Source: Escherichia phage phT4A. From it: DNA of 64,000 nucleotides. Positions 39,372 through 57,493 of the stretch are shown here, in pieces. The stretch lies in the sequence record NC_055712.1. One strand, written 5' to 3'. The position numbers were made by a program, and so were the translations under genes. The notes under the pieces were generated by a model that was not told the DNA's origin, searched no databases, and worked only from the letters and a program-made list of their open reading frames with translations. Position 1 is the first letter of the stretch; every line of letters starts with the position of its first letter.

Positions 39372-39854
39372 ATGCTCACTAAACGTATTACTAAGAAAGA
39401 TTATCCATCCATTAAACAAGCTCTTTTTGAACAGCAAAACGGCTTGTGCGCGTTATGTGGTCGCCCTTTAGAGGGTGACCTTGAAAAGCATCACCTTGAC
39501 CATGATCATGCTCTATCTGGCTCTAATGCCGGACGTGTGCGCGGCCTCCTATGTAACCTATGCAACGGTACAGAAGGTATTGTAAAGCACAAATTTAATC
39601 GTTCTGGTCTGGTTTCCCGTGATGTTGATTACATCGAATGGCTAGAAAGCCTGGTAGCATACCTCAAACGCGACTATTCACAAAACCGTATGCACGACAA
39701 ATTTATACCCGATAAGGTTAAATGGTTTACACGCCTGACTAAATCGGATATGATAGCCGAAATGATTTCTATGGGCTTTGAGTACTCAGAAACTGAGGAT
39801 CGCAAGGCTTTAGCAAAGAGCTATAGAAGACAATTAATGAAGGCAACCAAATGA
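39372..39854 (+). CDS. 49: endonuclease VII (Holliday junction resolvase gp49)
   Basis: ATG at 39372 (track start 39357 is a TTG); QNGxCxxCxRxL, HLDHDH, (K/R)VRGLLCNLCN, KHKFNRSGL, DYxEWLExL, GFEY match T4 gp49. Confidence 0.93.
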   Translation: MLTKRITKKDYPSIKQALFEQQNGLCALCGRPLEGDLEKHHLDHDHALSGSNAGRVRGLLCNLCNGTEGIVKHKFNRSGLVSRDVDYIEWLESLVAYLKRDYSQNRMHDKFIPDKVKWFTRLTKSDMIAEMISMGFEYSETEDRKALAKSYRRQLMKATK

Positions 39855-40113
39855 AAGTAGAAAAANNNNNNNNNNNNNNNNNNNNNNNNNNNNNNNNNNN
39901 NNNNNNNNNNNNNNNNNNNNNNNNNNNNNNNNNNNNNNNNNNNNNNNNNNNNNNNNNNNNNNNNNAAAACGTAGGTTATGGACAGGATATACCCTGGAGG
40001 CTTTACAGGCCGACCCAGAACGTTCTAAGCTACTTCCTTACATTGATGTTCTGATTGATGGTAAGTATGAAAAAGATTTGCCAACAGAAAAAGCCGTTTC
40101 GCGGTTCAGATAA
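39851..40113 (+). CDS. nrdG: ORF interrupted by scaffold gap; the C-terminal 46 codons resemble the NrdG (anaerobic RNR activase) C-terminus
   Basis: MKVEK start overlaps the gp49 stop; after the gap ..WTGYTLEAL...VLIDGKYEKDL resembles E. coli NrdG ..WTGYKLDEL...VLVDGKF.QDL. Confidence 0.45.
39866..39965. other. scaffold gap (100 N)
   Basis: Exactly 100 N; true size unknown. Confidence 0.99.
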
Positions 40114-40166
40114 TCAACGTATGATCGAATTCGCAATAAAAATTCGATAGAAATTAAAAATATTGC

Positions 40167-40194
40167 TTGACCTAATGTGTAACTATGGTAATCT
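40167..40194 (+). promoter_or_regulatory. candidate early/middle promoter (TTGACC-N16-TAATCT, overlapping a TGCTT MotA-box-like motif)
   Basis: ATTGCTTGACC ... TAATCT about 45 nt upstream of the 40240 ATG. Confidence 0.35.
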
Positions 40195-40239
40195 TACCAC
40201 ATCGTAAATGACGATTAACTTTAATTGAGAGATAATATC

Positions 40240-41208
40240 ATGATCCTGAATTTCAAAACCCGTAAAGAAGCGCGTAACTACTGCTGGAAGTGGAACATTC
40301 CCCTGAAAACCATCCGTAATACAGGGCGCGGTTCTTGCCCGTGGACAGTTCAAGCAAATGAACTGAAAACGTTCGTGGTTGGTAAAACTTACAAACTGGT
40401 TGACCGTGAAGGGTTTACTACCAATTCACACGGCGGATCTAACACCGCAAACACTATCCAGGCGAGACAGATCGAAAAATTCCTGAATAACGAGGTAAAA
40501 ATTATCTCGAAAACCAATTCAGATACTTTCAAAATTGAGCATACTCCGGAAATGACTTTTAGCTCTCTGCGTTCGTGGGAAGCTCGTTATTTCGTCGAAG
40601 TTGGCGCGGCTCCGGTTAAGAAAACGAAAGCTAAACCGAAAAAAGCCAACGTTACGGCTCCGGTCGCACCTGTTGCACCAGTAACAGCAGTAACAGCAGA
40701 TCTTGATCAAATGCTTGATGGTGGTTCGGCAATGTCGGTTGAACTGGATCCGACTAAATTTGTTGAAGGCCGTTCGTATGTTCTGGTTAAACCGCAGCAA
40801 TTTAAAAATCGTTGTGGCGCTAACCACGGGATCAAATCATATACCGATGAACACAGTAATGGTGTATACACCGTTTACCATACGACTTCGCTCGGTCATC
40901 ATCAATTGAGCAAAACGGTAGAAACCATTGATTCCCAGACCGGAAAAGTTGGTTACTATCTGCTTGATTCTGAACGTTCGTTCTTCCGTGAACTGGCGAC
41001 AGGAATTGTTGATGAACCTGTTAGCGTTTCCGGTAATAGCGCTATCGCTATCAATGTAGACGAAGCGGCTAAGAAAGAAGAAATCGCAAAAGCAATGACA
41101 CAGCTTGAAGAAGCGGTTAAGGCCCATGATGACGCTCTTCAAAATCTGCGTACTGCTTCCGACCTGGTTCGCAAAGCTGCTCGAAAAGTAGCAGAAGTAA
41201 GCAAGTAA
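40240..41208 (+). CDS. hypothetical protein with internal tandem-duplicated domain, Pro/Ala/Val-rich linker and C-terminal coiled coil
   Basis: 322 aa from the ATG at 40240; repeats ..FVVGKTYKLVDREGF..SHGGSN.. and ..FVEGRSYVLVKPQQF..ANHG..; linker APVAPVAPVTAVTA. Confidence 0.55.
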   Translation: MILNFKTRKEARNYCWKWNIPLKTIRNTGRGSCPWTVQANELKTFVVGKTYKLVDREGFTTNSHGGSNTANTIQARQIEKFLNNEVKIISKTNSDTFKIEHTPEMTFSSLRSWEARYFVEVGAAPVKKTKAKPKKANVTAPVAPVAPVTAVTADLDQMLDGGSAMSVELDPTKFVEGRSYVLVKPQQFKNRCGANHGIKSYTDEHSNGVYTVYHTTSLGHHQLSKTVETIDSQTGKVGYYLLDSERSFFRELATGIVDEPVSVSGNSAIAINVDEAAKKEEIAKAMTQLEEAVKAHDDALQNLRTASDLVRKAARKVAEVSK

Positions 41209-41216
41209 ATTAAACT

Positions 41217-41239
41217 GGGTGCTCCGGCACCCTTTTTTA
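41217..41239 (+). terminator. rho-independent terminator (gggtgc-tccg-gcaccc + T6)
   Basis: Perfect GC stem and T tract after the stop. Confidence 0.65.
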
Positions 41240-41250
41240 TGAGGTGACAC

Positions 41251-41919
41251 ATGGAATTATTAGAAGGTAAATCTTATACCCTGAACATCGACGCTAAAGA
41301 ATTTGCAGAAAAAACCTGGCGAAATGCTTTAGCTGAATTGATCAAAAACAACGGCTATATTACAATCGATCGTATTGCGATTGGGGATACTGAGGACATT
41401 GCTTATGTTCTGCAAGATGATTTCGAATATGAGATCCCTAGCCATATCTGGAAATACTTTAAACCATATGATTTACCGGAAGAAGAACCGAAGATTGCTA
41501 CTAAAGAAGAAATCGCCGCGCCTGATTTAAATTTCGTATCTTCCGATCCTAAAATGTGGATGACTGTAAAACCTGTTCAACAAGATATCAATGATCTGCG
41601 ATTTGATTATCCTTTTGTCAAGCGGATCACTTCGATTTCTGTACTACCAGCGCCGACGGATTCACAGGCACTTGAATTTGCATTACAGCATGTTTTCGGT
41701 GATAATAAGCTGTACGCGATTGACAAGGAAGCTGCTATTGATGAACAGAAAAAGGAAATCATCAACCTTCTTTCTCTGCATCAACAACTTGAAGCGGTGG
41801 AATTGATTGAGCGTATGCTTTCTGATACAAAGAAAGATATCATTAGCAAAATCACTCCGGCACGAAGGAAAGCAATTGATGAAAATCGAGATTTACGGTA
41901 TTCCCGAATCGCTTCATAA
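41251..41919 (+). CDS. hypothetical protein
   Basis: 222 aa ORF; 3' end overlaps the next gene by 41 nt. Confidence 0.5.
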   Translation: MELLEGKSYTLNIDAKEFAEKTWRNALAELIKNNGYITIDRIAIGDTEDIAYVLQDDFEYEIPSHIWKYFKPYDLPEEEPKIATKEEIAAPDLNFVSSDPKMWMTVKPVQQDINDLRFDYPFVKRITSISVLPAPTDSQALEFALQHVFGDNKLYAIDKEAAIDEQKKEIINLLSLHQQLEAVELIERMLSDTKKDIISKITPARRKAIDENRDLRYSRIAS

Positions 41920-42160
41920 ATGTTATGGTTGTATTGAAGCTCGGAAATTACTTGATGAGCATGGATTAGAATACGAATTTTATTCTGTTCTAAAGCCAGC
42001 AAATAACAGTGTGGGGTTTGATTACGATCGGCCCCGCATTGAAGAGTTAGCGAAACGTGTTCGTAGTCGAAGCATGGCATTTACTTACCCTCGGATCTTT
42101 GTAGATGGTAATTTTATTGGCGGTTATATGCAATTGAAAGAGTATTTGGGTGAAGCATGA
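41879..42160 (+). CDS. glutaredoxin-like protein (possible NrdH-type redoxin)
   Basis: 93 aa from the ATG at 41879; CYGC active site, TYPRIFVDGNFIGGY glutaredoxin signature. Confidence 0.7.
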   Translation: MKIEIYGIPESLHKCYGCIEARKLLDEHGLEYEFYSVLKPANNSVGFDYDRPRIEELAKRVRSRSMAFTYPRIFVDGNFIGGYMQLKEYLGEA

Positions 42161-42456
42161 ATAAAGAATACATTCGCAAAGTAGCAAACGCTATTCACGC
42201 AACAACGATTGATTTTCTGGAAGGGTTTGATCATATTATCCATCCCGAAACGTTGGATAGTTGGGAAGCCAAACTGTTTAAAAGTATCAATGAACAGTTT
42301 CCGGAAAAGGTTAAGCGCTGGTTTATCAGACAGGAAATCGTAGCAACGATCCTTAATGAACGTGGTGTTGAGGCGTTCGGTGTAACCCCTCTATATAAAC
42401 GAAACCAGATTACAGACGAAACAATCAAGAAATATAAAAAGATGGTTCGGAAGTAA
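42157..42456 (+). CDS. hypothetical protein
   Basis: 99 aa ORF, start overlaps the upstream stop. Confidence 0.5.
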   Translation: MNKEYIRKVANAIHATTIDFLEGFDHIIHPETLDSWEAKLFKSINEQFPEKVKRWFIRQEIVATILNERGVEAFGVTPLYKRNQITDETIKKYKKMVRK

Positions 42457-42472
42457 TAAATAATCAGTTAAA

Positions 42473-42492
42473 TGGCCTTCGGGCCATTTTTT
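42473..42492 (+). terminator. terminator hairpin (tggcc-ttcg-ggcca + T6)
   Basis: Stem-loop plus T tract before the gene 34 late promoter. Confidence 0.55.
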
Positions 42493-42495
42493 GTA

Positions 42496-42503
42496 TATAA
42501 ATA
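42496..42503 (+). promoter_or_regulatory. late promoter box TATAAATA upstream of gene 34
   Basis: Exact TATAAATA 33 nt upstream of the gp34 ATG. Confidence 0.6.
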
Positions 42504-42535
42504 TTGGTATTGAATACAATATAGGAAAAAAGATA

Positions 42536-45500
42536 ATGGTAGCTAAATCATTCCGCGCACGAAGTGGCCTTGATGCTGCTGGTGAAAAAGTTATCAACGT
42601 TGGGAAGGCTGATCGTAATACGCTGAGTGACGGCGTTAACGTTGACTTTTTCAATGAATTTAACGGAATCCAGCAGTATGACCCGACCCGTGGTTATTCT
42701 CAAGACATGGCGATCATTTATGCGCGTCGTATCTGGTACGCAAAACAGAATATTGCTTCCCCTGCTGGGGCTTTCGACGAATCCAAATGGATCGCAACTC
42801 GTAATGACCCGAAATGGGTTTATAGTAACGTAACCACTCCGGACGGTAGTATTATCGATTCTGGTAGTTACATTATGGCTGATGGGCGTTTTACCGAACT
42901 TCTGTACCTGCTGCCGGACAACCCGACAGAAGGCGACGTAATCACGTTTAAAGATTGCGGTGGTTTGGTTGGTGTAAACAGTATCCTCGTTAAGTCTAAC
43001 ACTCGTCAGATCCGTTTACGTGCGGTACAATCAGCGCAATATAGATTAACTCATCCTTACATGATCGCAACGTTTATCTATAACGGTAACGTGTGGCGTG
43101 TTTCTGAGGCGCTGGATAACCGTGATTCTGAAATAGTAAATGCAACCGGAACAGGTTCATTCCAGTTACAATCTGGCATGACAGTTTTCCGTAATAGCGC
43201 TACAGGTAAAATCACTCTCCAGTTACCAAAATATGCAAACGACGGTGATGTGATCACAACCTACGACGCTGATAAAATGAACTCTATCAACGTAGCCGTT
43301 TTGCAGATATATCCGGGTAGCGGACACACTATTTCTGATGGTGCAAGTACTGGTGTTACTTCGGTAACTAGCCAGAAATCCGGCTTTGGCATGTTCATCT
43401 TTGATGCACAGAATAGCCAATGGAAAGTATACGATGCGGATAACCGTGTTCGTCTACGTCGTATCTATAGTGATTTAAACGCAGTTCCAAATGATTATGT
43501 TTTTGTTACTGCAAACCCTTCTGGGGCTGTACCAAACGTTACTGTTACTCTCCCAACTGATGTTGCTGATGGTGACCGTGTTTACGTATCCCTGTATATG
43601 ATGGGTAAAAACCAGAACTGTACAATCAAAGTTAAAGATGGTACTACGGATAAGATCCGAACCAATAAAAACATGATGCAGTTCCCGCAGCGCAAAGATT
43701 ATCCGCCCGATGATTGGTTTAGCGTAACGTCTCTTGCTTTTAACGCAGGTAGCGATTACCTCCCTTATATCGAGTTTTCTTACCTGAAAGCTACGAAAGA
43801 ATGGGTTGTTGCTAACTATCGTCCGATTGTTGAACGCGTTGATGCAACAAACCGTACTCGTACTGGTGTTATTGCTCTGGCTGCTCAGGCAGAAGTTAAC
43901 AAAAACCTGGAAGATAACCCGAACGACGAAACGGCTATTACTCCGATGACGTTAGCAAATAAAACAGCTACTGAAACGCGTCGTGGTATTGCGAGACTGG
44001 CAACTACTGCCGAAGTTAACAAACTATCTACAGATACCTATCTGGATGATGTGATTGTTACTCCTAAGAAGCTGAACGAAAGAACAGCTACTGAAACGCG
44101 TCGTGGTTTGGCTGAGATTGCAACCCAGGCAGAAACAAACGGAAGTACCGATGACATTACGATCGTGACTCCTAAAAAGCTGCATAATCGTATCGCATCA
44201 CCAACATTAACGGGGATCCTTGCTCTTGTTGCAACTGGTGGTACTGCAAACACCAACACAGACCGTGCTCAGGCTGGTACTGGAATTTACGATCACTCAG
44301 ATTATCAAAAGGCGGTAACGCCTAAAACACTGCGTGAATATAAAGCAACTGAATTACAATCCGGTGCTGTATGGCTGGCAAACCTGAATGAAGTTATTAA
44401 CGGTACTGTTGCAAGTTCTAACATTCCGACCGTCGTTACTCCGGAAATGTTACACAAGAAAACTTCTACTGATGCGCGTATTGGTTTGATTGAGATCGCG
44501 ACTCAGGCAGAAACCAACGCAGGGACTGATTACACGCGAGCGGTAACGCCTAAAACGCTTAATGATCGTACTGCTACCGAAGGTCTAACCGGGATTATTG
44601 CAATTGCAACCACTGCCGAAGTATCAGCAGGTACTGTAACGAATAAAGCGATCGTACCGTCTAAACTGAAAGGTTATCTGGACGATACAAGTCATATTAC
44701 TGTTGCTACTGCTGACGGGTTAACTCAATCTGGTACTATCTGGACTACGGTTAACATCGGTATTCAATCAGCAACTGAAACTCAACGTGGTACTTTACGC
44801 GTTGCTACGCAGTCTGAGACGAACGCAGGGACATTAGATACAGTATTTGTCACCCCTAAGAAGTTACACGCTAAGAAAGCGACTGAGAGCGCAGAAGGTA
44901 TCATTCAGGTGGCTACGGCTGCTGAAACTACCGCTGGCACCGTTGCAAACAAAGCTGTTTCTCCTAAGAACTTGAAAAATACGATTCAGGTTGATACTTC
45001 ATGGCAAGCTACCGATCTGGTACGTGGTACGGTGAAACTGTCTAAAGGTGCTGGTACTTGGTCTGGTAATGATGTGGCTGGTTCTACTCTTCCTGATGAT
45101 GGTTACGCCGCTGTAGGTGTTGCTGTTTCTCCGTATGAATTGAACTTAACGCTGAAACATTATCTGCCTATCGGTGCTAAAGCTGTTGATGCTGATAAAC
45201 TTGATAATCTGGATTCTTCTCAGTTTATTCGTCGTGATGTTGCACAAACTGTTAATGGTGCGTTGACCCTGACACAAACAACCACTGTACAAGCTAACAT
45301 CAACTCAACTGCTGATGCATCTTTTCGTGTGATGAATGTCAACGGTGATTTAAACGTTGGCGACGGTTCGTCGATGGGTAAACTTCGTCTGAATGGTGGT
45401 TCAGCTAACGACTGGTCTATTCAAGCCAGTGCTGCTTCTGGGCGTATTGCGATGATTTCGACGGGTAATACTAGCACAGTTCATCTTTCTGTGTATAATG

Positions 45501-46309
45501 ATACTCGCGGCGTTGTAGCTAACGTTAAATTTCAGGCTCCTGAAATTCAGGCAACTAGCAAAGTGTCTTTAGGTAGTGATAGCGTTATTTCTGCAAGCGG
45601 TTCTAACCTTTTACTGGGGGTGAACAGTAAGACAACGCAGATCAATACATCCGATGCAGGTAACATTGTAGCGGCTGAATCTGGGAACTCTTACAAAGTC
45701 TTTACTGAGAAGAACGCGCAAACCTTGCTGAATCCTACGTATGTACGTAAAGCAGGTGATACGATGTCTGGACGGTTGACAATCAACAACAGTTCTCTTA
45801 TCATCGCAGGTCAAGCGGCTTGGTCAACTCAGGATGCAGTAAACGAAGCATCACGGGGATACTGGACAGCAGAAATTACCTCTGCTGCACAATACAACTT
45901 GCTTCCTGGTTATGCGGTTCCGGTTCTCGAACCAGATCCGATTAACCCAGATATTATGATTGTAACCCGTTATACCTACGTTAAAGCACCTGGTACGTTA
46001 ACTCAGTTTGGTAACGGAACCGCATACACTTATCAGATTTGGGCACCTCGTCCGACCTCTGGTACTGGTGTTAACGCGTTGGCGCAATCCTTCTGGATCC
46101 GTCAAATGAATCCAATTACAGGTAAATTTGATGAATGGGGCCGCATGTATACGAGCAACAACCCGCCTACTGCTGGTGAAATTGGGGCAACGTCTGCTGT
46201 TGGTACTACGGTTAAAAACATGACTGTTACTGATTGGATCAAAGTTGGTAATGTTAAGATTTACCCAGATCCGGTTACTCAGACAGTTAAATTTGAGTGG
46301 GTGGCATAA
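42536..46309 (+). CDS. 34: long tail fibre proximal subunit gp34
   Basis: 1257 aa from the ATG at 42536; N-terminus GLDAAGEK(V/I)INV..ADRNT.SDGVNVD, QQYDPTRGY, TATETRRG(I/L)A repeats and C-terminal PDPVTQTVKFEWV match T4 gp34. Confidence 0.95.
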   Translation: MVAKSFRARSGLDAAGEKVINVGKADRNTLSDGVNVDFFNEFNGIQQYDPTRGYSQDMAIIYARRIWYAKQNIASPAGAFDESKWIATRNDPKWVYSNVTTPDGSIIDSGSYIMADGRFTELLYLLPDNPTEGDVITFKDCGGLVGVNSILVKSNTRQIRLRAVQSAQYRLTHPYMIATFIYNGNVWRVSEALDNRDSEIVNATGTGSFQLQSGMTVFRNSATGKITLQLPKYANDGDVITTYDADKMNSINVAVLQIYPGSGHTISDGASTGVTSVTSQKSGFGMFIFDAQNSQWKVYDADNRVRLRRIYSDLNAVPNDYVFVTANPSGAVPNVTVTLPTDVADGDRVYVSLYMMGKNQNCTIKVKDGTTDKIRTNKNMMQFPQRKDYPPDDWFSVTSLAFNAGSDYLPYIEFSYLKATKEWVVANYRPIVERVDATNRTRTGVIALAAQAEVNKNLEDNPNDETAITPMTLANKTATETRRGIARLATTAEVNKLSTDTYLDDVIVTPKKLNERTATETRRGLAEIATQAETNGSTDDITIVTPKKLHNRIASPTLTGILALVATGGTANTNTDRAQAGTGIYDHSDYQKAVTPKTLREYKATELQSGAVWLANLNEVINGTVASSNIPTVVTPEMLHKKTSTDARIGLIEIATQAETNAGTDYTRAVTPKTLNDRTATEGLTGIIAIATTAEVSAGTVTNKAIVPSKLKGYLDDTSHITVATADGLTQSGTIWTTVNIGIQSATETQRGTLRVATQSETNAGTLDTVFVTPKKLHAKKATESAEGIIQVATAAETTAGTVANKAVSPKNLKNTIQVDTSWQATDLVRGTVKLSKGAGTWSGNDVAGSTLPDDGYAAVGVAVSPYELNLTLKHYLPIGAKAVDADKLDNLDSSQFIRRDVAQTVNGALTLTQTTTVQANINSTADASFRVMNVNGDLNVGDGSSMGKLRLNGGSANDWSIQASAASGRIAMISTGNTSTVHLSVYNDTRGVVANVKFQAPEIQATSKVSLGSDSVISASGSNLLLGVNSKTTQINTSDAGNIVAAESGNSYKVFTEKNAQTLLNPTYVRKAGDTMSGRLTINNSSLIIAGQAAWSTQDAVNEASRGYWTAEITSAAQYNLLPGYAVPVLEPDPINPDIMIVTRYTYVKAPGTLTQFGNGTAYTYQIWAPRPTSGTGVNALAQSFWIRQMNPITGKFDEWGRMYTSNNPPTAGEIGATSAVGTTVKNMTVTDWIKVGNVKIYPDPVTQTVKFEWVA

Positions 46310-47245
46310 TGTCAAACTTAATGGCGGGGTTCGGCCCCGATTTTGTAGAAACGCAAATTCTATCGGAAACAAACAGCGTAACTTACAGAATAACCGCAAA
46401 GGCAACACATCCCAATGCGGTTCCTAATCAGTATGAGTTTACACTAAATCAAAAGGCGGTAGGGACACCGCCTAGTGTTGGGATCAACGTATGGAGAATT
46501 AACAATGCTGTAGTTGATCCAATTAAAACCTTCACATTATCGAATGATAATTCAGCAACTGCAAACAAAGCGTTTGTTGAATATATGGATGCTCAACCTT
46601 CTGGGCTGTATTTGATAATGACTAACGGTGAATACAAAACAAGCCAAATCGTTGATGATTGGTTTGCTAAAAACAGATCCGTTATGTGGCAAGGCGCTGA
46701 TTTCGCTCAGAGATTCCCAAATTCTGCATATGTTGCATTGTATGGGGCTTCAAAATCTCGTATACTGATTGAATCGTTTTACGCGAACGATGGAGTTTTA
46801 AAAGAAGATTCACGCGCATCAATCGATCTTGTCTATGATAACGTTGGTGATGTTGGGCGAACTGGTGTACCTTTCCGATCTGTTGAAGATACGGAAGAAT
46901 ACAATTCAACCAATGGATCTGAATATAAAGTATATCCTGTTGCAAACCCAGTGATCTCTAAACTGGCTGATTATGGTATGGCTCCTGGATTAGCTATGAT
47001 GATTGCTGGTGATTTTTACGCCAGCAAAGCATTATTGGATGCTGGATCAACAACAAGGGTTACTGTTCGATGGTTTACGGGTACTGCTCAAACTTCATCA
47101 TCGGTGATTGAAGTTCCTGCAAATAAACCTGATGAGTGGTTACGATTTGAACAGTTCTATACGATCCCTAGTGGTTGTGATGGATTTAACGTTGCTGTAT
47201 CTCGTTATCCTAAACCCGCTACGGATAGTTTATCTGCGTATCCGT
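46309..47245 (+). CDS. 35: long tail fibre hinge protein gp35 (3' end lost in scaffold gap), assigned by position
   Basis: ATG overlaps the gp34 stop; 312 codons before the gap (T4 gp35 is 372 aa); the track's 1640-aa ORF is an artefact of reading through N. Confidence 0.55.
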
Positions 47246-47345
47246 NNNNNNNNNNNNNNNNNNNNNNNNNNNNNNNNNNNNNNNNNNNNNNNNNNNNNNN
47301 NNNNNNNNNNNNNNNNNNNNNNNNNNNNNNNNNNNNNNNNNNNNN
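47246..47345. other. scaffold gap (100 N)
   Basis: Exactly 100 N; probably hides the gp35 3' end, possibly gp36, and the first codons of the distal fibre gene. Confidence 0.99.
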
Positions 47346-50300
47346 TTTAGCAAAAATTCAATTCCTACGTAGCACAGTTGCGGGGAAAACACCTACTACA
47401 AGTCAGCTTGCAGATGGTGAACTGGCGATCAACATGGCTGATTATGCCATTTACACGAAAAATGGTTCTTCGATCGTTCAGTTAGCGGGTAAAGGTATCC
47501 CAGAAACAAATACCAAAAAATTAACAGTAAATGGGCCTAGTGCTCTTAATGATACCGTTACCGTAGCGGAAGGTAAAACTATTACTTTCACCAACGCGGA
47601 TTTGAGCGGGGGTATGGTTCGTCATATCACTGGTAAAAACGCGCTTAATGATGGTTGGTACATCGGTTCTGGTGGTGAGAGCAATAAAGGGTTTTTAGAA
47701 ATCGGTACAATTGATGACGGTGATGAAGAGATCCGTTTCGTTTCCCGTGGTTCTGGTGATACTGTTCGTCGTACTCTGAAACTTATTGATTCCGGTGGTA
47801 ACACTCGCGTACCAGGTAACATCTATATTGATGAAGCTATGGGCGGTGGTGGTTCTGCTTTTATTTCAAAAAACAAAGCATATTTCGGTGCTGGCGGTGC
47901 TGATATCTATATGCGTAACACTGCTGGCGGTGCGACAAATCAGTTAACGATCACTGATGGCGGTGAATTGCTGTTTCAAGCAAAACCTGTATACTGGGAC
48001 GGTCGTAAACCGACTTTAACCGAATTGGGGATCGGGCGGGTTGAAAACGCGCGTCAAATGCAGCAAGACAATTGGCCTATAACTACAGGTAATGAAACCC
48101 GATGGGTTAAAGTTGCTCTTTTAAAAGATCCTGGCTCAGGTCATAGTCGCTTGCAACTGATGGTGACTAACGGCGGTAACTATGGTTCTACACGCGGATC
48201 GTTCGATTTTATCGATTGTTCTGCTCGTAGTATGCCTTCAACATTAACGGCTGCAAATATTCGTTCTTATCTGCAAATTCGTCGATTGGGCGATCCGGCA
48301 ATGGATGACACTAACCAGATGCGTTATAGTTTGGTTCGCACATCCGAAGGTTTGGAATTGTGGTTTACTCAAAGATCGTTCATCGGTAGTACAAAAATTG
48401 CTCTGTTATCTACGGCTGGCGTGACTGAATATTATATTCCTAGTGGATATACATCACAAACAACCGCTCCGGATGGTTTGATCGAGAGTAAGCCTATTCG
48501 TATCTATGACGAAATGAACAAACCTAGCCTTGACGATGGTACTGATGGTATTCTGTCTGTTGCTAAAGGTGGTACAGGCGCAAGTACAGCGGCTGCTGCT
48601 CGCACAAACTTAGGTTTGGGTACTGCTGCAACCCGTGATGTTGGTACAGGTTCCGGACAAGTAATGCTTGTTGGTGCTTACGGTTTAGGCGGTAAGGGTA
48701 CATCATATAGCATCGCAAATGCTCGCGACTTCCTGAAACAACTGCGTACTGATGGTTCTCAGTTCATGCGAAATACGCTTGGTACTGACATTAACTATGG
48801 TATGGGCGCAAGTTTTTATAGTTCCGTATCAGATGTTCATGCAGTGATCTCGGTTGATTGGAATACTGGTCGCGTTAAAGTTGGTGCAACTAATGATACT
48901 AACCTTAACTCAGATACAGGAAGAATCAACTTCCAGGAACTGTACGGTACTGCATTTAAACCGACTCCGGATGACGTAGGGGCTGTTGCACGTGCTGGTG
49001 ATACGATGTCTGGTGATCTGACGATCTCTAAAGTGTCGCCTGGTTTCCATTTGAATGCTGAGAGCGGAAACTCCGTAATTTGGTTTAAGTATAAAGGGGT
49101 TGAAAGTGGTGCTGTGTGGGCGTTGCCTAATACTGCCTCTTCTGGTGAAGTTCGCATTCGTGCCAGAACGTCGGGCGGAACGACTGGGGGCGAATTCTCA
49201 TTTAAATCAGACGGTACATTTACATCACCTGGTAATATCAATATTACTAGCGGCGCTTTCAACGGTAAAAGTGTCAATACTCAGTATGCGAACTTTAATA
49301 ACACAAGTTCAACAACAACCGAACAAACCGTTTCTATTAGTGGTTCGCAGCACACTCCTCTGTTACTGAATAGACCGACTAACTCGAACTTGTCTATCGG
49401 GTTTAAACTTTCCGGAATGAACATGAAACGTTTGGGTATCGATGTAAACGGTGATATTCGTTACGGTGAAGCCGAAAACCAGACACAAAACGCATGGCTG
49501 TTGACTTCGGATACCATAAACAGATGGAGTGTTAACTTCGGGCGTGATATTAACGTTGCAGGTGTAGTTAATTCAACTGGTGGATTTACTGGCCCTGTTA
49601 CTGCATATGATTTGACCGGGGTAACTCAGGATCTTGATGCTTTAACATTGAACAATGCCGAACCAGGACATATTAAAGTTTATTCGTGCCGTAGTATGGG
49701 TGGCGGTGATAACATCACCAATAAACCTTCCGGCGTAGGTGGTAACTTTATTGTTATCGTTGAATGTCTCCGTAAAGTCGGCGATACTGATTACACTAAC
49801 CGTCAAGTATTACGCGCATCGGACAATAAACGCAGTTGGGAACGTTGGTTTACTGTTAGCGGTACTGCTAAAGCCTGGACACCGTGGAGAATGAACGTTG
49901 TTAGCGGAAACGATGACGATGTATCATTTAAATCTGTTACCACAACTACAGGAAACCTGAACAGTGGAAACGATCTGATTGTTGCGAACAACGCTCGCGT
50001 AGGTGGCAACTTAGGGTTAGGTGGTGCTTCTTCCACGACATACACTGATAAAGGTGTTGTGATTGGTAACGGTAGTGCGCTGTTAGAATCCACTGATGGT
50101 CGCATGATTATTGGTAGTTCTGGTGCTGGTCGTGCTGTTGAATTGCGTCCTGGTGGCCCAACTCAAACCAACAACGGGATCAAAGTGACTGCTACCTCTG
50201 GAAGTGGTGGTGATACTGCGATCGAGTATGCGCAAGGGGTGAAAATCCGGGCAAATAACGGTGGTGCGTTGATTATTTCTGCTAAAGCTGGACAAACGAT

Positions 50301-51219
50301 TTATCTACGTCCTCAAGGAGATACATCCAGCACAAACGAAACAAGGATTGATTCTAGTGGTAACATGATAGTTAATGGTAATATCAGTGCAAACGGAAAT
50401 ATGTCTGCTACTGGTACGTTAACTGTTTCTGGTGCTACTACATTAAACAACACATTAACGGTTAATAATGTAGGGCCAATCGAGAAACGGGGGATCAGGA
50501 CGTATACAGAAGGTTCTGTTACTGTCAACGAAACCGACGGCATTACGATGTTTGGTAATGGCACAATTCATGGCACAATGCGATTAGTTGAGAGAGTGAA
50601 TAATACTACTTTCATCGGTCTGCAAACTTCCATTAATGACACTACAAACGGTTGGTTTGAATTCCACCACACAGGAAAATTCAAATCAAACAATATCGAA
50701 GCCTCTGGTAATATTGTTAGTTTGACTGGTTCCATTGGTGCTGTTGGTGCATTGACTGTAACGGCTCCTTCTTCTGATAACGGTACTGACCATATTTGGT
50801 TCCGTAACTCTGATGGATCTGAACGTGGTGTTATCTATATGCCAGGCAATGCTAATATTGGCGGTTTCCGCGTTCGTGGTGTGGAATGGCAATTTGATGG
50901 CGGTGCTAGTCAGTTTATCGGCCCTGGTGCTCGTTGGCGTATTCACCCTGATGGTAATATTCAGGCTGATGTTTTTAGCGGTTATCTGAATAACTACATC
51001 AATGATCGGTTTAACGCGTGTGCTCAGTGGGTTCGTACTGGTGCTCAACAGGACTTTGGTCAGATCGGTCGTCCTGCTCCTGGTTTAACAGTTCCTGCTG
51101 GTTGGGTTTTAGTTGGTCTTAACGCCAACGGTAACGAAGCTAACCAGAACATGCAGTTAATCGGTGGTCGTTTGCAGGTATGGAAGAATAACGTTCAATG
51201 GGTTGATTCTGCAACTTGA
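47346..51219 (+). CDS. 37: long tail fibre distal subunit, gp37-type (fibre A; 5' end in gap)
   Basis: Begins (truncated) LAKIQFLRSTVAGKTPT.SQLADGELAINM, matching the T4 gp37 N-terminus MATLKQIQFKRS..AGTRP...LAEGELAINL; about 1290 aa; no C-terminal chaperone domain; followed by a gp38-like chaperone. Confidence 0.8.
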
Positions 51220-51226
51220 TAAAATA

Positions 51227-51240
51227 GGGGCTTCGGCCCC
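51227..51240 (+). terminator. GC hairpin (ggggc-ttcg-gcccc) after fibre A, weak T tract
   Basis: Same hairpin type as other terminators in the window but followed by ttcattc. Confidence 0.35.
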
Positions 51241-51261
51241 TTCATTCTTAAAGGTAAAATA

Positions 51262-51663
51262 ATGATTGTTAAACAAATGAAAGGTATTCGCTGGCATCAT
51301 AATTTTGAAGGTGGTGCTTACTATCGTGATTGTAATGACAAGTGCTGGTATGAATTTCGTAATTCTTTGGATAAAAATTCCCATATCATTATAGTTGATG
51401 CTAAAACCAATAAAATCATTAACTATTATAACGGTGATGATCCTACGATGATTGGATTGTTTGCTGATAAAGAAATGATTCTTAATGTGTATCAGCTATC
51501 AGAATTTCCTGTTAATGACTGGGGAGAATTCTCTAAGCGAGAATTTAAGTTCGAAGATGATAAGGTAGTCATGACGAAAGATGTTGAACTTCCGAAATCT
51601 CGAACAAAAGAAGATATCATGGCAGATTTGATAAAACTTCAAAAAGAGCTAGAGGTAATGTAA
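51262..51663 (+). CDS. 38: tail fibre assembly chaperone, gp38-like
   Basis: 133 aa directly after fibre A; pattern similarity to the T4 gp38 chaperone (..IIIVDAKTNKIINYY.. vs ..YAVVFDERTQDWIY..; ..FPVNDWGEF.. vs ..FDEPGEFDIW..). Confidence 0.5.
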   Translation: MIVKQMKGIRWHHNFEGGAYYRDCNDKCWYEFRNSLDKNSHIIIVDAKTNKIINYYNGDDPTMIGLFADKEMILNVYQLSEFPVNDWGEFSKREFKFEDDKVVMTKDVELPKSRTKEDIMADLIKLQKELEVM

Positions 51664-51669
51664 TTTCTA

Positions 51670-51747
51670 AGGCTACCTATATGGTAGCCTTTTTGTTGTA
51701 TGCTAAATATACCTATAGCAACCTAAGAAGAGTCTTATAAAATGGCT
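51670..51747 (+). repeat. intergenic element copy 1: terminator hairpin (aggctacc...ggtagcct + T5) + AT box + ATGGCT start
   Basis: About 90% identical to 56445-56513. Confidence 0.8.
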
Positions 51748-51847
51748 NNNNNNNNNNNNNNNNNNNNNNNNNNNNNNNNNNNNNNNNNNNNNNNNNNNNN
51801 NNNNNNNNNNNNNNNNNNNNNNNNNNNNNNNNNNNNNNNNNNNNNNN
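51748..51847. other. scaffold gap (100 N)
   Basis: Exactly 100 N; flanks share ggct, compatible with a direct join giving ATG GCT GAT TTA (MADL...). Confidence 0.99.
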
Positions 51848-54800
51848 GGCTGATTTAGCAAAAATTCAATTCCTACGTAGCACAGTTACGGGGAAAACAC
51901 CTACTACAAGTCAGCTTGCAGATGGTGAACTGGCGATCAACATGGCTGATTATGCCATTTACACGAAAAATGGTTCTTCGATCGTTCAGTTAGCGGGTAA
52001 AGGTATCCCAGAAACAAATACCAAAAAATTAACAGTTGATGGGCCTAGTGCTCTTAATGATACCGTTACCGTAGCGGAAGGTAAAACTATTACTTTCACC
52101 AACGAGGATTTAAGTGGTGGAATAACTCGTCATATCGTTGGCAAATGCGCCACTAATGATGGTTGGTACATCGGTTCCGGTGGTACAAGCAACAATGGTA
52201 TTCTTGAAATCGGTACTATTGATGACGGCGTTGAAACCATCCAGATCGTACAGCGCGGCGCAGGCAACGTTGAAGCCAGAAAGTTAGTCTTGCTTGATGG
52301 TTCGGGTAATACGAATCTTCCTGGTGATTTAAGATTAACCACCAATAAAGCTGTTAAAATTTCGAATGGAAGCACTCTTACACTAGAAATGGGCGTAGGT
52401 GCTAACGATGTATACATTAAAAACCTGAAAGGCTCTGGCGTTCTTCAATTAACCAATGATAGTAATCTGTCGTTCAGAAATTACCAGGTTTATTATGCCA
52501 TGAGTGGAAAAGGCCCTGGTAAAGATGGTACTCTTCTGACTAATGTAGAAAACGAGCGCCAACTTAAACAGGATAATTTCCCTATAACTACAGGCAACGA
52601 AGCTCGGTGGACTAAAGTTGCTCTTTTAGTAGACCCCGGCTCAGGGCCGAGTCGCTTGCAACTGATGGTGACGAACGGCGGTAACTTTGGTTCTACGCGT
52701 GGCTCTATCGACTTTATCGATTGTAGCGCTAGAAACTTTCCCGCAACATTAACAAGCAGTAACATTCGTTCTTATCTGCAAATTCGTCGAATCGGCGATC
52801 CTGGACTTGATGGCACAAACCAATTACGTTATAGTCTAGTTCGTACCTCTGAGGGTTTAGAACTGTGGTTTACACAACGCGCGTTTATTAGTGGTGTTAA
52901 AGTTGCTCTGCTGTCTATTGATGGTAATACTAAATATTATCTGCCTACTGGTTACACGACTACTTCAACTGCTCCAGAAGGTTTAGTTGAGAGTACGGCT
53001 ATTCGTATCTATGATGAGGTAAACAAGCCTAATCTCGACGATGGTACTGATGGTATTCTGTCTATTGCTAAAGGTGGTACAGGTGCAAGTACAGTAGATG
53101 CCGCTCGCACAAACTTAGGTTTGGGTACGGCTGCAACCCGTGATGTTGGTACAGGTTCCGGACAAGTAATGCTTGTTGGTGCTTACGGTTTAGGCGGTAA
53201 GGGTAAATCCTATAGTAGTTCAACCTCTCGCGATTACCTGAAACAACTGCGTGCTGATGGTTCTCAGTTCATGCGAAATACGCTTGGTACTGAAATTAAC
53301 TATGGTATGGGCGCAAGTTTTTATAGTTCCGTATCAGATGTTCATGCGGTGATCTCGGTCGATTGGAATACTGGACGCGTTAAAGTTGGTGCGACTAATG
53401 ATGCTAACTTGAACTCAGATACCGGAAAAATCAGCTCTCAGGAACTGTACGGTACTGCATTTAAACCAACTCCGGATGACGTAGGGGCTGTTGCTCGTAC
53501 TGGTGATACAATGTCTGGTGATTTGCTTATCAGTAAAGAGTCACCTGGGTTATTTTTGAATGCCACTAATGATACCGGAAACTCTGTAATTTGGTTTAGA
53601 AACAAAGGAGTTGAGACAGGTGCTGTATGGGCAATACCTAACACCGAGTCTTCGGGTGAGGTTCGAATTCGTGCTAGAACGACTGCTGGGGTCACAGGCG
53701 GCGAGTTCAAATTTAAATCTGACGGTACATTTACATCACCTGGTGATGTAAATATCACCAGCGGTGCTTTCAACGGTAAAAGTATCAACACTCAGTATGC
53801 GAACTTTAATAACACAAGTTCAACCACAACCGAACAAACCGTTACTATTAGTGGTTCACAGCACACTCCGCTGTTACTGGATAGACCGACTAACGCGAAC
53901 TTGTCTATCGGGTTTAAACTTTCCGGAATGAACATGAAACGTTTGGGTATTGATGTAAACGGTGATATTCATTACGGTGAAGCAGAAAACCAGACAAACA
54001 ACGCATGGCTGTTGACTTCGGATACAGTAAACAGATGGGTTGTTAACTTTGGTCGTGATATTAACGTTGCTGGTGTGGTTAATTCGACTGGTGGATTTGC
54101 TGGCCCTGTCGCAGCGTATGATTTGGCTGATGTTAAACTAGATCTTAATGATTTAACGCTAACTGGCGCTACCCCAGGCCATGTTAAAGTTTATTCATGC
54201 CCTAGTATGGGTGGCGGTAATAACATCACCAATAAACCTTCTGGCGTCGGTGGTAACTTTATTGTTATTGTTGAATGTCTCCGTAAAATAAACGATACCG
54301 ATTACACTAACCGTCAAGTATTACGCACATCTGATAGTAAACGCAGTTGGGAACGTTGGTTAACTGTTAGCGGTACTTCTAAAATCTGGACACCGTGGCG
54401 TGTTAATATTGTTAATGGGAATGATGACGATGTATCATTTAAATCCGTTACCACGACTACAGGAAACCTGAACAGCGGAAATGATTTGATTGTTGCTAAC
54501 AACGCTCGCGTAGGTGGTAACTTAGGGTTAGGTGGTGCTTCTTCAACGAAATACGCTGATAAAGGTGTTGTGATTGGCAAAGGTAGTGCTCTGTTAGAAA
54601 CTACTGATGGTCGTGTGATTATTGGTAGTTCTGGTGGTGGTAATGCTGTTGAATTGCGTCCCGGTGGCCCAACTCAAACCAACAACAGGATCAAAGTAAC
54701 TGCTACCTCTGGAAGTGGTGGTGATACTGCGATCGAGTATGAACAAGGCGCTAAAATTCGTGCTAATAATGGTGGTGATTTGATTGTTTCTGCTAAAGCA

Positions 54801-55823
54801 GGTCAAGCAATTTATCTGCGACCGCAAGGTGATGCATCCAGCACAAACGAAACCCGTATTGATGCAAACGGTAGTATCACGATTAACGGCAATATTAACG
54901 CCAACGGTACATTAACTTGTACTGGTGGTGCTGTTAACGGAGACTTGACTGTATCAGGAAAAGTAGATATCACTGGAAACCAGTTAAAAACTACATCGCT
55001 CTGGGTTACTGGAGATGCTGCTGTTAACGGTGTTTTAACTGTTGATGGAAGGGCTAGGTTTAATCAAGAGTTCATTGTATCAACTTCGGTTAACGTCCAG
55101 AACACTGGTAACAGTCATTTGGTCTTCCGTAAAGCTGATGGTACAGAAAAAGGACTTATTTGGGCTGATGAGCCTGGTAGCGTTAGTATAAGAGCAGGTG
55201 GTGTCTCTGGGCCAACGTGGAATTTCTGGAACAGTGGTTCTTGCCAATTCCCAGGTGCTATTAGTAACTTTAATGGTGTTAATAGTACTACTAATTACCC
55301 TGGCGGCGGAAGTGGCGCGTATTTAAATACCGCTGGCTTAACAAGTAGATTTAGTAATGGTGCTTATGTTTCCTTATACTTCCAAGAATATGTAGGAAAT
55401 TATCACCAGGCTATTCTTAATGTTAACGGCTATGGTCGAGATGACAATTTCTATTTCAGGGCCGGCGGTGACTTCTTCTGTACTCGTAACGGTTCTTTTG
55501 ATAACGTTGAGATTCGTTCTGACCGTAGAGCCAAATCGGATATCAAAGTTATTGAAAATGCTTTAGAAAAGGTTGAAACATTATCTGGTAATACTTATGA
55601 ACTTCATAACACTTCTGGCGGTACTACTCGTTCTGCTGGGTTGATTGCTCAGGAAGTTCAAGAAATCTTACCGGAAGCAGTTACTCAAGATAATGAAGAA
55701 GATGGCGGTATGCTTCGTCTGAATTATAACTCAGTAATTGCACTTCTTGTTGAATCTGTTAAAGAGCTTTCTGCCGAAGTTAAAAATCTTAAAGCAGAAA
55801 TTGAAGAACTTAAATCTAAATAA
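51848..55823 (+). CDS. second gp37-type distal tail fibre (fibre B) with C-terminal S74-type intramolecular chaperone domain
   Basis: Reads (M)ADLAKIQFLRSTVTGKTPT... from the gap edge; co-linear with fibre A at 70-95% aa identity over about 1100 aa, then a different tip. Confidence 0.8.
55518..55823 (+). other. C-terminal intramolecular chaperone (peptidase S74-like) domain of fibre B
   Basis: SDRRAKSDIK.IENALEKVETLSG.TYEL......RSAGLIAQEVQEILPEAV...........LNYNSVIALLVESVKEL matches the T5 pb1 / endosialidase CIMCD consensus. Confidence 0.8.
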
Positions 55824-55826
55824 TGC

Positions 55827-55850
55827 ATGGGGCTTCGGCCCCATCTTTTA
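55827..55850 (+). terminator. hairpin (atggggc-ttcg-gccccat) after fibre B
   Basis: 7-bp stem, ttcg loop, then ctttt. Confidence 0.5.
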
Positions 55851-55862
55851 GGAGAAATAACT

Positions 55863-56390
55863 ATGGCAGTAACAGGGCCGTGGGTCGGAAGTTCAGCAAA
55901 GGCTGAAACTGGTGAGTCGTGGATGGCTCAAGCTGGGGCCAAATTAAGAATAGGGACACCGTTTTGGATGTCTAATATGATTGGACAAAGCGTATTCCAT
56001 TTAATTTTCAGAATTAACTATGCACAGGGTTCTTCTGGTGATCCATCTAGATATAGAGGATTCTTTAAAAGAGGGTTAGCAGTAAGTGTAGGAGATTCTG
56101 CTAACCAACCGACGCTGAATGCGTTCCCTGGCGGAGATGTGGGTTCACTAGTAGCTATTACAAATATCAAAGGCGACCCTTATTGCCTTTCTATTTGGAA
56201 TGGTCAAGATAGGCGAGTTAAAGTTTCTATTTTTAGAAGCGATGGAGCCGAACAATACGATGTTTATTTTAGCGGAACTACTATGGCTGACGGGTGGAGA
56301 AGGTATAAATGCGAAGATGCTGGAGGTCTCAATGGGTATTTTGAGGCTAGAATGGATAACCAGTTTGGTGCTTTATTAGAATATGTTTGA
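55863..56390 (+). CDS. hypothetical protein in the gp38 position downstream of fibre B (possible fibre accessory/adhesin)
   Basis: 175 aa from the ATG at 55863 with AGGAG RBS; Gly/Ser/Trp-rich; no family recognised. Confidence 0.5.
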   Translation: MAVTGPWVGSSAKAETGESWMAQAGAKLRIGTPFWMSNMIGQSVFHLIFRINYAQGSSGDPSRYRGFFKRGLAVSVGDSANQPTLNAFPGGDVGSLVAITNIKGDPYCLSIWNGQDRRVKVSIFRSDGAEQYDVYFSGTTMADGWRRYKCEDAGGLNGYFEARMDNQFGALLEYV

Positions 56391-56444
56391 TAGGTAAACC
56401 AACAAATTCACCTCATAATATTAAATAGATTAAAAGGCTACCAT

Positions 56445-56513
56445 ACAGGTAGCCTTTTTGTTGTATCCTAAATATACGTATAGTAACCTAAGAAGAGTCT
56501 TATAAAAATGGCT
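56445..56513 (+). repeat. intergenic element copy 2 (terminator hairpin + AT box + ATGGCT holin start)
   Basis: About 90% identical to 51670-51747. Confidence 0.8.
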
Positions 56514-56742
56514 GAGAGAAATCCCGTAGATAAACTAGCCTTATTTGATCGGGTAATCTCGTTTGTGATGGGTGTGAAAACATGGAAACAATTGCTGATA
56601 AAAATAATTCTAATAATGGTTATGTTTCTTATGGTAGTAACTTGGTACAAATGGACTGATATATTCCCGATGATAAAAGGTGCCCTTGTAGTCGATACAA
56701 GGGCTATCGAAATGGAAAGAACTGAAAAGTTTAATCAATCCG
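56508..56742 (+). other. t: 5' portion of holin gene t, duplicated on the left side of a scaffold gap (probable unmerged contig overlap)
   Basis: 56506-56742 is identical base-for-base to 56843-57079. Confidence 0.85.
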
Positions 56743-56842
56743 NNNNNNNNNNNNNNNNNNNNNNNNNNNNNNNNNNNNNNNNNNNNNNNNNNNNNNNNNN
56801 NNNNNNNNNNNNNNNNNNNNNNNNNNNNNNNNNNNNNNNNNN
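56743..56842. other. scaffold gap (100 N), probably spurious
   Basis: Flanked by a 237-bp exact overlap. Confidence 0.95.
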
Positions 56843-56845
56843 AAA

Positions 56846-57493
56846 ATGGCTGAGAGAAATCCCGTAGATAAACTAGCCTTATTTGATCGGGTAATCTCGT
56901 TTGTGATGGGTGTGAAAACATGGAAACAATTGCTGATAAAAATAATTCTAATAATGGTTATGTTTCTTATGGTAGTAACTTGGTACAAATGGACTGATAT
57001 ATTCCCGATGATAAAAGGTGCCCTTGTAGTCGATACAAGGGCTATCGAAATGGAAAGAACTGAAAAGTTTAATCAATCCGCGTTGGAACAGTTGAGCATA
57101 GTTCATCTTACTTCCAACGCGGATTTTTCAGCGGTATTGGCATTCAGACCAAAGAATATAAACTATTTTGTTGACATTGTAGAATATCAGGGAAAACTAC
57201 CATCCCAGATCGATCCTAAAAACCTCGGCGGTTATCCGATCGATAAAACATCCGAAGAATACACGAATCATATAAATGGCTTGTATTATTCATCCACTAA
57301 AGCAAGTTCCTACCTACCGACACGTGGTTTTGTGCCAGTAGCTTATACTTTTAGTTGCCCTTATTTTAATCTTGATAACTACTATTCTGGATCGGTTTTG
57401 ATGGAATGGTACGCAAAGCGGCCTAATATACCAGATATGAAGCTAAACATCATATGTGGACAGGCCGCGCGTATTTTAGGTCGAGTGAGGTGA
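56846..57493 (+). CDS. t: holin T (lysis/lysis-inhibition)
   Basis: 215 aa; N-terminal TM segment, ALEQL.IVH..S.ADFSAV..FRPKN.NYFVDI..Y.GKLPS, LGGYP.DKT, SCPYFNLDN.Y.G, ICxQAARILGR match the T4 gpt holin. Confidence 0.93.
   Translation: MAERNPVDKLALFDRVISFVMGVKTWKQLLIKIILIMVMFLMVVTWYKWTDIFPMIKGALVVDTRAIEMERTEKFNQSALEQLSIVHLTSNADFSAVLAFRPKNINYFVDIVEYQGKLPSQIDPKNLGGYPIDKTSEEYTNHINGLYYSSTKASSYLPTRGFVPVAYTFSCPYFNLDNYYSGSVLMEWYAKRPNIPDMKLNIICGQAARILGRVR

Follow-up and report, generated by a model that had tools for sequence, protein, structure and literature searches.

Apparent tandem tail-fibre cassettes in the Escherichia phage phT4A scaffold most likely represent two variants of one locus

The 64,000-nt stretch of the Escherichia phage phT4A record NC_055712.1 analysed here (the window) shows, one after the other, two genes for gp37, the distal subunit of the long tail fibre, and two starts of the holin gene, with four runs of N in the same region. 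This raises the question of whether the phage carries two fibre tips or whether the arrangement was produced during assembly. The analysis suggests that the apparent tandem gp37 genes and the repeated holin start are most likely assembly artefacts derived from two variants of one locus, and that the duplication is probably not real as a biological feature.

As a preliminary description made from the letters alone had reported, the N runs number four and each is exactly 100 nt; a scan of the whole window finds no other non-ACGT bases. That description had also taken them for scaffold joins rather than measured gaps, and this is borne out: they are joins in the draft scaffold of a Slopekvirus, a T4-type Klebsiella phage resembling KP15. 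A total of 329 phage records match the region 38000-59000, nearly all from T4-like Slopekvirus (KP15 group) phages of Klebsiella, Enterobacter or Raoultella, and the top overall match is vB_KpnM_VAC13 (MZ322895; locus L001), with 89% of the query aligned at 96% identity. The genes stand in the usual order: endonuclease VII, nrdD to nrdG, gp34, gp35, gp36, gp37, an accessory gene and holin (t), with rIIB and rIIA on the opposite strand. The other sequences used for comparison are K14-2 (PP978606; L008), vB_KM5a1-KLB23 (PP554337; KLB23), the contigs JGI Ga0181864_147573 (L011) and Logan SRR22111975_956 (L012), and one further contig for each of the two fibre types described below, L025 (a Logan contig, A type) and L030 (B type). 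The five contigs and four gaps map on VAC13 as follows.

1-39865: contig c1; its end falls at VAC13 2366, 99.7% identity
39866-39965, no strand: gap 1, 100 N; flanks 4,951 bp apart in relatives
39966-47245: contig c2; VAC13 7318-14585, 99.4% identity
47246-47345, no strand: gap 2, 100 N; about 923 bp missing, flanks without overlap
47346-51747: contig c3; VAC13 15509-19921, 94% identity (99.4% to KLB23)
51748-51847, no strand: gap 3, 100 N; between two alternative versions of one locus
51848-56742: contig c4; VAC13 15503-20150, in pieces, 85-99% identity
56743-56842, no strand: gap 4, 100 N; an unmerged contig overlap
56843-64000: contig c5; its start falls at VAC13 19913, 96% identity (99.2% to K14-2)

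By this mapping, the four gaps are four different kinds of thing. The warning in the preliminary description that local gene order and gap sizes are unreliable is supported. Its statement that the flanks of all gaps overlap applies to gaps 1 (AAAA), 3 (GGCT) and 4 (238 nt) and fails at gap 2, where there is no overlap.

The VAC13 interval from the gp37 start to the holin start is covered twice in the window, once by c3 and once by c4. Each of these contigs holds a gp37-like gene of about 1,300 codons, an accessory gene and a 74-nt terminator-plus-leader element, followed by ATGGCT(GA). The features concerned, with lengths in amino acids (aa) where given, are:

47346-51219, plus strand: gp37 A, distal long-tail-fibre subunit, lacking its first 8 nt; phrog_10316 match
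51262-51663, plus strand: Tfa-type tail-fibre assembly chaperone, 133 aa, partner of gp37 A; phrog_136 match, E = 6e-13
51669-51747, plus strand: terminator-plus-leader copy 1, then ATGGCT, the end of c3; four A's before ATG
51848-55823, plus strand: gp37 B, lacking its first 2 nt (AT); PF13884 Peptidase_S74 intramolecular chaperone domain at residues 1224-1279, E = 4e-15
55827-56390, plus strand: gp38-type adhesin, 187 aa, partner of gp37 B; PF21721 Gp38_N, E = 6e-23, and phrog_1121 'tail fiber adhesin'
56434-56507, plus strand: terminator-plus-leader copy 2; five A's before ATG
56505-56742, plus strand: end of c4, holin 5' end, 78 codons; duplicate of 56843-57080, single copy in L011 and L012
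56846-57493, plus strand: complete T-type holin gene at the start of c5; PF11031 match

The two gp37 proteins share 71% amino-acid identity over the first ~1015 residues, with a single difference in the first 60, and their tips are unrelated. At about 52300-52540 the two versions do not align. gp37 A, which is 99.4% identical to its KLB23 counterpart and 99.9-100% to L025 over the stretches compared, has no Pfam match, Peptidase_S74 included. The 133-aa chaperone likewise has no Pfam match; the KLB23 annotators found this protein Tfa-like by HHpred. In VAC13 the 133-aa tail-fibre assembly protein (19435-19836) is labelled 'single-stranded DNA-binding protein', a probable mis-annotation. The 187-aa gp38 is unrelated to the chaperone. 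c4 thus has the make-up of a gp37 plus gp38 adhesin cassette of the T2/T6/S16 type, and c3 that of a Tfa-chaperoned tip of the T4/lambda type with no gp38 partner. The two copies of the 74-nt element are 89% identical, and the KLB23 annotation places a terminator and a ribosome-binding site at this element, upstream of holin. Tfa and gp38 versions have been described as alternative, swapped variants of one Slopekvirus locus (bioRxiv 10.64898/2026.05.12.724579, Discussion, Fig. S25). The preliminary description had located the false duplication in the holin sequence; the larger duplication of about 4.5 kb, in which c3 and c4 represent the same locus, had gone unrecognised.

Homogenisation of the gp37 5' ends within one genome was considered and rejected. 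The apparent identity of 97% was inflated by N-to-N matches; the real value, ~92% over the first 388 nt, is what unrelated carriers also show.

The closest homologue of gp37 B (P0001, 96%) lies between gp36 and gp38-holin on L030, which carries a single cassette. The exact gp37 B protein is not on record, whether taken in its partial form or from the internal ATG. The exact gp38 protein occurs in two public contigs, with one holin after each.

At gap 4, positions 56505-56742 and 56843-57080 are 100% identical over 238 nt, comprising three A's and the first 235 nt of the holin gene, and both copies translate into the same 78 residues; the duplicate reported earlier was correct in kind and its length, given as 237 bp, is 238 nt. 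In L011 and L012, gp38, the terminator element and a single holin follow one another without a break; both contigs match the end of c4 exactly and extend into c5. Here, identical flanks coincide with a single copy in two independent assemblies. Gap 4 is a true unmerged contig overlap, as had been suspected for at least one of the gaps, and the second holin 5' end is not real.

The start of c5 bears on both cassettes. c5 opens with AAAATGG, exactly where the 3' ends of c3, with four A's, and c4, with five, first share sequence. Over its first ~750 nt it is identical to the version-B contigs L011 and L012, against 14-17 differences from the A-linked L025, among them those at 56975, 57056, 57057, 57061 and 57074. 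The Logan SRR22111975 contig carries the exact gp38 protein, but with 11 differences from the window over 2.1 kb it is not the source of the latter. Further into c5, the open reading frame (ORF) at 58050-58931 on the minus strand encodes 293 aa in the window and in Logan SRR22111975_956, and its homologue 265 aa in VAC13, KLB23, K14-2, the JGI contig and most Logan contigs. The longer form has an apparent N-terminal extension; the VAC13 label is single-stranded DNA-binding protein.

At gap 3, between the two cassettes, c3 ends in ...TATAAAATGGCT and c4 opens with GGCTGATTTAGC, and collapsing the shared GGCT restores ATGGCTGATTTAGC, the start of the gp37 gene. In the relatives, what follows the end of c3 is holin: after ...TCTTATAAAATGGCT, the next bases in L025, KLB23 and VAC13 are GAGAGAAATCC. 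L025 is 100% identical over the last 624 nt of c3; the c3 end lies at L025 position 624 and the c5 start at 616, an overlap of 9 nt. The end of c3 fits the start of c5 (9 nt) better than that of c4 (4 nt). The 4-nt overlap of c3 with c4 arises because holin and gp37 both begin with ATGGCTGA. After ...TCTTATAAAATGGCTGA (51740-51750), holin would continue as GAGAAATCC and gp37 B as TTTAGCAAAA, with a B-specific A at the equivalent of 51888; c3 breaks off after ATGGCT, 2 nt short of the first base in which the two differ.

Relatives show one cassette at this place. Queries with c4 and c3 matched 260 and 128 phage records, respectively, at one place per record among the matches listed, and every annotated record among these has the order fibre, accessory gene, holin. 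Exact carriers of the chaperone show gp36-gp37-chaperone-holin in 10/10 cases among the matches listed, with holin directly after the chaperone. A second cassette of this kind was found in no related genome or contig examined, and the single one always lies between gp36 and holin. The records CPRSA and CPRSB, in which 6-7 'L-shaped tail fiber' genes and two assembly catalysts are annotated, were considered as duplicated loci; CPRSB, the one inspected, has just one cassette, interrupted by frameshifts.

A synthetic junction of 96 nt, made from the c3 end and a gp37 start, gave matches at 224 places in 112 records and was spanned by none of them; the two places per record on average are taken to be the gp37 start and the holin leader. 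A 23-mer across the junction is absent from viral, metagenome and genome collections, and a c4-specific 29-mer is absent from viral and genome collections. By the controls, no more than 2-3 Slopekvirus contigs are present in the viral and metagenome collections, and the genome collection was searched without a control; the phage-record collection alone is well populated with Slopekviruses, and the other negatives weigh little. In the window itself the N run interrupts the path from the chaperone's terminator element to a second gp37, and the arrangement was found in no other genome, neither among the 112 matching records nor in the viral, metagenome and genome collections.

These observations suggest, with fair probability on the sequence evidence, that the template was mixed and that both alleles were laid in series with spacer N's. 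The sample would have held two closely related genotypes differing at the distal long-tail-fibre locus. Genotype 1 would have carried gp37 with the Tfa-type chaperone (c3), and genotype 2 gp37 with Peptidase_S74 and the gp38 adhesin (c4). The two arms may have been too divergent to collapse, in which case both would have been assembled. As both map to one place, they could then have been laid one after the other, giving a false 'heterotype' duplication with a gap. c3 and c4 would both run into c5, by overlaps of 9 nt and 238 nt. The scaffold would then consist of five contigs set in the order of related genomes, with 100 N as the conventional spacer at each join.

Several features are consistent with this proposal. 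c5 starts at the last difference between the A and B arms (four versus five A's), and a break is expected where alternative paths merge. The break between c4 and c5 would be unexplained in a tandem genome, because this stretch is unique and continuous in L011 and L012. The assembly also lacks real sequence, ~923 bp with gp36 among it, and has contig ends of poor quality, with indels at both ends of c2. False heterotype duplication, in which two divergent alleles are assembled and placed side by side, is an established class of error (Kelley and Salzberg 2010, PMC2864568; Ko et al. 2022, PMC9516828), and a gap between the duplicated copies on one scaffold is its stated hallmark (PMC9516828). 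Here, the copies form one locus in relatives (the VAC13 interval; one cassette each in L025 and L030), and gaps separate them (51748-51847 between the cassettes, 56743-56842 between the holin starts). For near-identical T4-like Klebsiella phages, whole-genome sequence of the long tail fibres has been ambiguous and Sanger sequencing was needed (PMC13119998).

The geometry of the contig ends fits a mixed template and a real tandem alike, because both place the breaks at ATGGCTGA. An inference of the assembler from this geometry was tried and rejected: the start of c4, 40 nt before the first A/B difference, fits k = 41, the start of c3 lies at 34 nt, and the 3' end of c3 does not fit.

Other points weigh against a mixed template. 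The mixture is itself something we infer. A second genotype should leave duplicate contigs at every place where it differs by several percent, and none is seen for c2 or the holin region, while c1 is unbroken over 39.8 kb; outside the cassette the two genotypes would thus need to be almost the same. The pattern of parentage would also fit one unequal crossover, as c1 to c3 are 99.4-100% like VAC13, KLB23 or L025 and c4 and the holin end of c5 match the B carriers. The ends at gaps 1 and 3 lie in register in microhomologies of 9 nt and 8 nt (P ~1e-4 and 4e-4), which random breaks in coverage would not produce. c3 also stops just 2 nt short of the base separating holin from gp37 B. The probabilities come from a simulation of 300,000 random end pairs drawn from c1, the window's own sequence: the chance of an end overlap of at least 4 nt is 1.3e-4 within a microhomology of at least 9 nt (gap 1) and 4e-4 within one of at least 8 nt (gap 3).

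Gap 2 is of a different kind and hides about 0.9 kb of real sequence, including gp36, which the long tail fibre requires. The features on its left are:

42536-46309, plus strand: gp34, proximal long-tail-fibre subunit, 1257 aa, intact in c2
46309-47245, plus strand: gp35 hinge connector, N-terminal ~312 codons, cut by gap 2; phrog_1154 match, VAC13 gp35 having 374 codons

VAC13 14586-15508 (923 bp) is absent from the entire window. This interval comprises the final 63 gp35 codons, the entire gp36 gene and the opening 8 nt of gp37 (ATGGCTGA). L025 carries the missing stretch and is 99.9% identical to the window over 1 kb on either side of the gap, at the end of c2 and the start of c3. A 1-nt insertion (T at 47239) lies in gp35, 7 nt from the end of c2. 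The 1640-aa ORF reported across this gap (46297-51219) had been called an artefact, correctly: it runs from the N-terminal 316 codons of gp35, by way of 34 N-containing (X) codons, into gp37 at residue 4, and stays open only by the accident that a spacer of 100 N's puts the two frames in phase.

The nearest relative also switches here, c2 being 99.4% identical to VAC13 and 94.2% to KLB23, and c3 99.4% to KLB23 and 94.2% to VAC13, which places a natural recombination breakpoint in or near the missing gp35-gp36 stretch. Logan SRR11277063_967 is 99.9-100% identical to both c2 and c3 over the stretches compared. Within gp34, four units of ~55 nt (43938-44796; 62-76% identical; irregular spacing of 120, 378 and 306 nt) probably code for a structural motif that recurs in the proximal fibre shaft. 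Upstream, the ORF at 40225-41208 encodes a hypothetical protein of 327 aa from a TTG start (319 aa in relatives) and contains a 9-nt in-frame insertion relative to VAC13, TAACAGCAG, at 40691-40699. The 250-nt bin around this insertion holds 22 of the 45 differences between c2 and VAC13, a local variable patch.

Gap 1 lies between the genes for anaerobic ribonucleotide reduction. Its flanks are:

39851-39865, plus strand: end of c1, first five nrdD codons (ATGAAAGTAGAAAAA); aligns to VAC13 2352-2366, 99.7% to the last base
39966-40168, plus strand: start of c2, nrdG 3' remnant with three frameshifting indel events

c1 ends in ...ATGAAAGTAGAAAAA and c2 opens with AAAACGTAGG..., overlapping by AAAA (4 nt). 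With this overlap collapsed, an open frame results, MKVEKRRLWTGYTLEALQADPERSKLLPYI..., in which MKVEK is fused to RRLWTGYTLEAL...; it is in frame only through a 1-nt deletion 8 nt into c2. The preliminary description had noted that the overlaps at gaps 1 and 3 keep reading frames open once the N are removed. This stands as a description, but closing gap 1 in this way would join nrdD codon 5 to nrdG codon ~97, which are 4,951 bp apart in VAC13. VAC13 2367-7317 is unmatched anywhere in the window. In relatives this interval holds nrdD, about seven small ORFs and the 5' part of nrdG, and the nrdD-nrdG block is also present in KLB23 and K14-2. The exact gp34 protein has four carriers (VAC13, PSKm4DII and two Logan contigs), all with one fibre cassette; the two full genomes have complete nrdD-nrdG, and the two Logan contigs have the small ORFs and nrdG. 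Either sequence is missing at gap 1, or the gap marks the joint of a deletion carried by part or all of the population.

The condition of c2 near its ends is relevant to this choice. Within 171 nt the nrdG remnant lacks a T at 39974 and has gained an A at 40086 and AA at 40135-40136, with almost no substitution. Elsewhere c2 has only the 9-nt in-frame insertion and the 1-nt insertion at its very end, and c3 and c5 show no indels relative to their nearest relatives. With indels at both ends of c2 and none in c3 or c5, the c2 ends look like poorly supported consensus; a decaying nrdG pseudogene is less likely.

A microhomology-mediated deletion of nrdD-nrdG that is real in some or all of the population, whatever gap 3 represents, is possible though unlikely; it overlaps the other explanations and does not exclude them. 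Both gap 1 ends lie in register inside a shared 9-mer, AGAAAAACG, at its positions 7 (c1 end) and 4 (c2 start), a placement with the chance of ~1.3e-4 given above. The 9-mer is present at both sites in the wild type (VAC13 2360-2368 and 7315-7323), so that a direct repeat with the breakpoints inside it is observed. In T4, the anaerobic ribonucleotide reductase genes are dispensable in aerobic laboratory culture. A fixed deletion, however, would assemble straight through, and the joint is instead occupied by 100 N. The collapsed joint, made synthetically, matched 171 phage records, none of which spans it, and the deletion is absent from the related genomes. The three indel events in the first 171 nt of c2 further suggest thin coverage into a real gap.

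A structural difference between relatives was rejected as the cause of gap 1, as c2 starts in a stretch 100% conserved between VAC13 and K14-2. The spot is nevertheless variable in the genus: K14-2 has ~300 extra nt with a 109-aa ORF between endonuclease VII and nrdD, at the window equivalent of ~39856, ~10 nt from the end of c1, and nrdD is 69-87% identical between K14-2 and VAC13 over the first 500 nt. Elsewhere in K14-2, a DNA adenine methylase homologue (30727-31578) is labelled 'IS1595 family transposase ISCco4', a probable mis-annotation.

If the order shown is real, gp36 - gp37A - chaperone - gp37B - gp38 - holin, the genome would hold two distal long-tail-fibre cassettes in tandem, which appears improbable. 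Such a tandem could arise by unequal crossover of two co-infecting Slopekviruses at the 8-nt ATGGCTGA common to the holin and gp37 starts, its gain of 4.4-4.7 kb being offset by the 4,951-bp nrdD-nrdG deletion between the AGAAAAACG copies. This would use every contig exactly once. It agrees with the single parental type to the left of gap 3 and the match of c4 and the first ~750 nt of c5 to B carriers, with the in-register overlaps of the ends at gaps 1 and 3 in rare microhomologies, and with the complete gp37 B start that a GGCT merge restores behind the terminator and ribosome-binding-site element. Gain (+4,415 or +4,662 bp) and loss (-4,951 bp) are almost equal, although complete Slopekvirus genomes range from ~170.7 to 178.9 kb and compensation would not be strictly required. 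The near-identity of the gp37 N-termini, with one difference in 60 residues, means that both could dock on gp36, giving virions with two receptor specificities. Against this, no contig crosses either novel junction, and sequence continuity fails exactly there; 0/112 records span the synthetic tandem junction and 0/171 the deletion junction. The c4/c5 break with its 238-nt overlap has no cause in a single tandem genome. The required gp36 is missing at gap 2, meaning that this assembly drops real sequence and may have done likewise at gap 1, and the in-frame nrdD-nrdG fusion rests on a 1-nt deletion among other indel errors at that end of c2. Were the tandem true, one baseplate could bear two kinds of long tail fibre, with Tfa-chaperoned and gp38-adhesin tips for two receptors, and this would be the first natural T-even-type phage among those examined with two tip systems and a modern case of duplication balanced by deletion under headful packaging.

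A patchwork, with c1 to c3 from one phage and c4 to c5 from another in one sample or a pooled library, incompletely assembled and tiled on a reference such that no single genome matches the window even with the duplication taken out, is very improbable: the best relatives do vary (VAC13 at 99.4-99.7% for c1 and c2, KLB23 at 99.4% for c3, K14-2 and L030 at 99.2% for c5), segments are missing and contig ends are error-prone, but c5 shows nearly the same identity to L025 (A type, 99.0%) as to L030 (B type, 99.2%), mosaic similarity is normal among these phages, and two phages would be expected to leave many more duplicated stretches than one, with c1 continuous over 39.8 kb.

Under the favoured explanation, two variants of one locus in a mixed template, the scaffold probably records two receptor-binding variants of one backbone in one sample. 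Two coexisting variants would fit the known swapping of Slopekvirus cassettes, which bears on host-range prediction for therapeutic Klebsiella phages. Users of the record should distrust four annotations: the fibre genes in tandem, the additional truncated holin, the fusion ORF of 1640 aa, and the seeming absence of gp36 and of nrdD-nrdG. Gap 4 can be removed safely together with one 238-nt copy; the remaining three gaps should not be closed by deleting N's.

The window resembles VAC13, KLB23 and K14-2 in gene order, in nucleotide identity (94-99.7% per contig) and in the terminator element upstream of holin. Unlike the window, each of these genomes has nrdD-nrdG intact, gp35 and gp36 complete, one fibre cassette and one holin start.

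In the classical rII genetics of T4, tandem duplications are said to select compensating deletions under headful packaging, a finding reportedly due to Weil and co-workers in 1965 and to Homyk and Weil in 1974. If the order in the window were real, it would be similar in combining a gain of ~4.5 kb with a loss of ~4.95 kb of dispensable genes, with joints at short identities. It differs in that its copies are different alleles (71% amino-acid identity, unrelated tips) and in that the window lacks junction sequence.

The likeness to false heterotype duplication lies in diverged copies that stand adjacent with a gap between them, are single in relatives and share flanks. That phenomenon belongs to diploid eukaryotes; here, the haplotypes would be two phage genotypes, and the case is judged by sequence rather than by depth or read pairs.

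Finally, T-even-like tip cassettes come in two types: the T4 type, a gp37 tip with a chaperone, and the T2, T6 and S16 type, a gp37 with a cleaved C-terminal chaperone domain together with a gp38 adhesin. c4, with Peptidase_S74 and Gp38_N, corresponds to the latter, c3 has another tip with a Tfa-type protein, and both lie between gp36 and holin in relatives. Described genomes hold one type per locus, whereas the window scaffold shows both.

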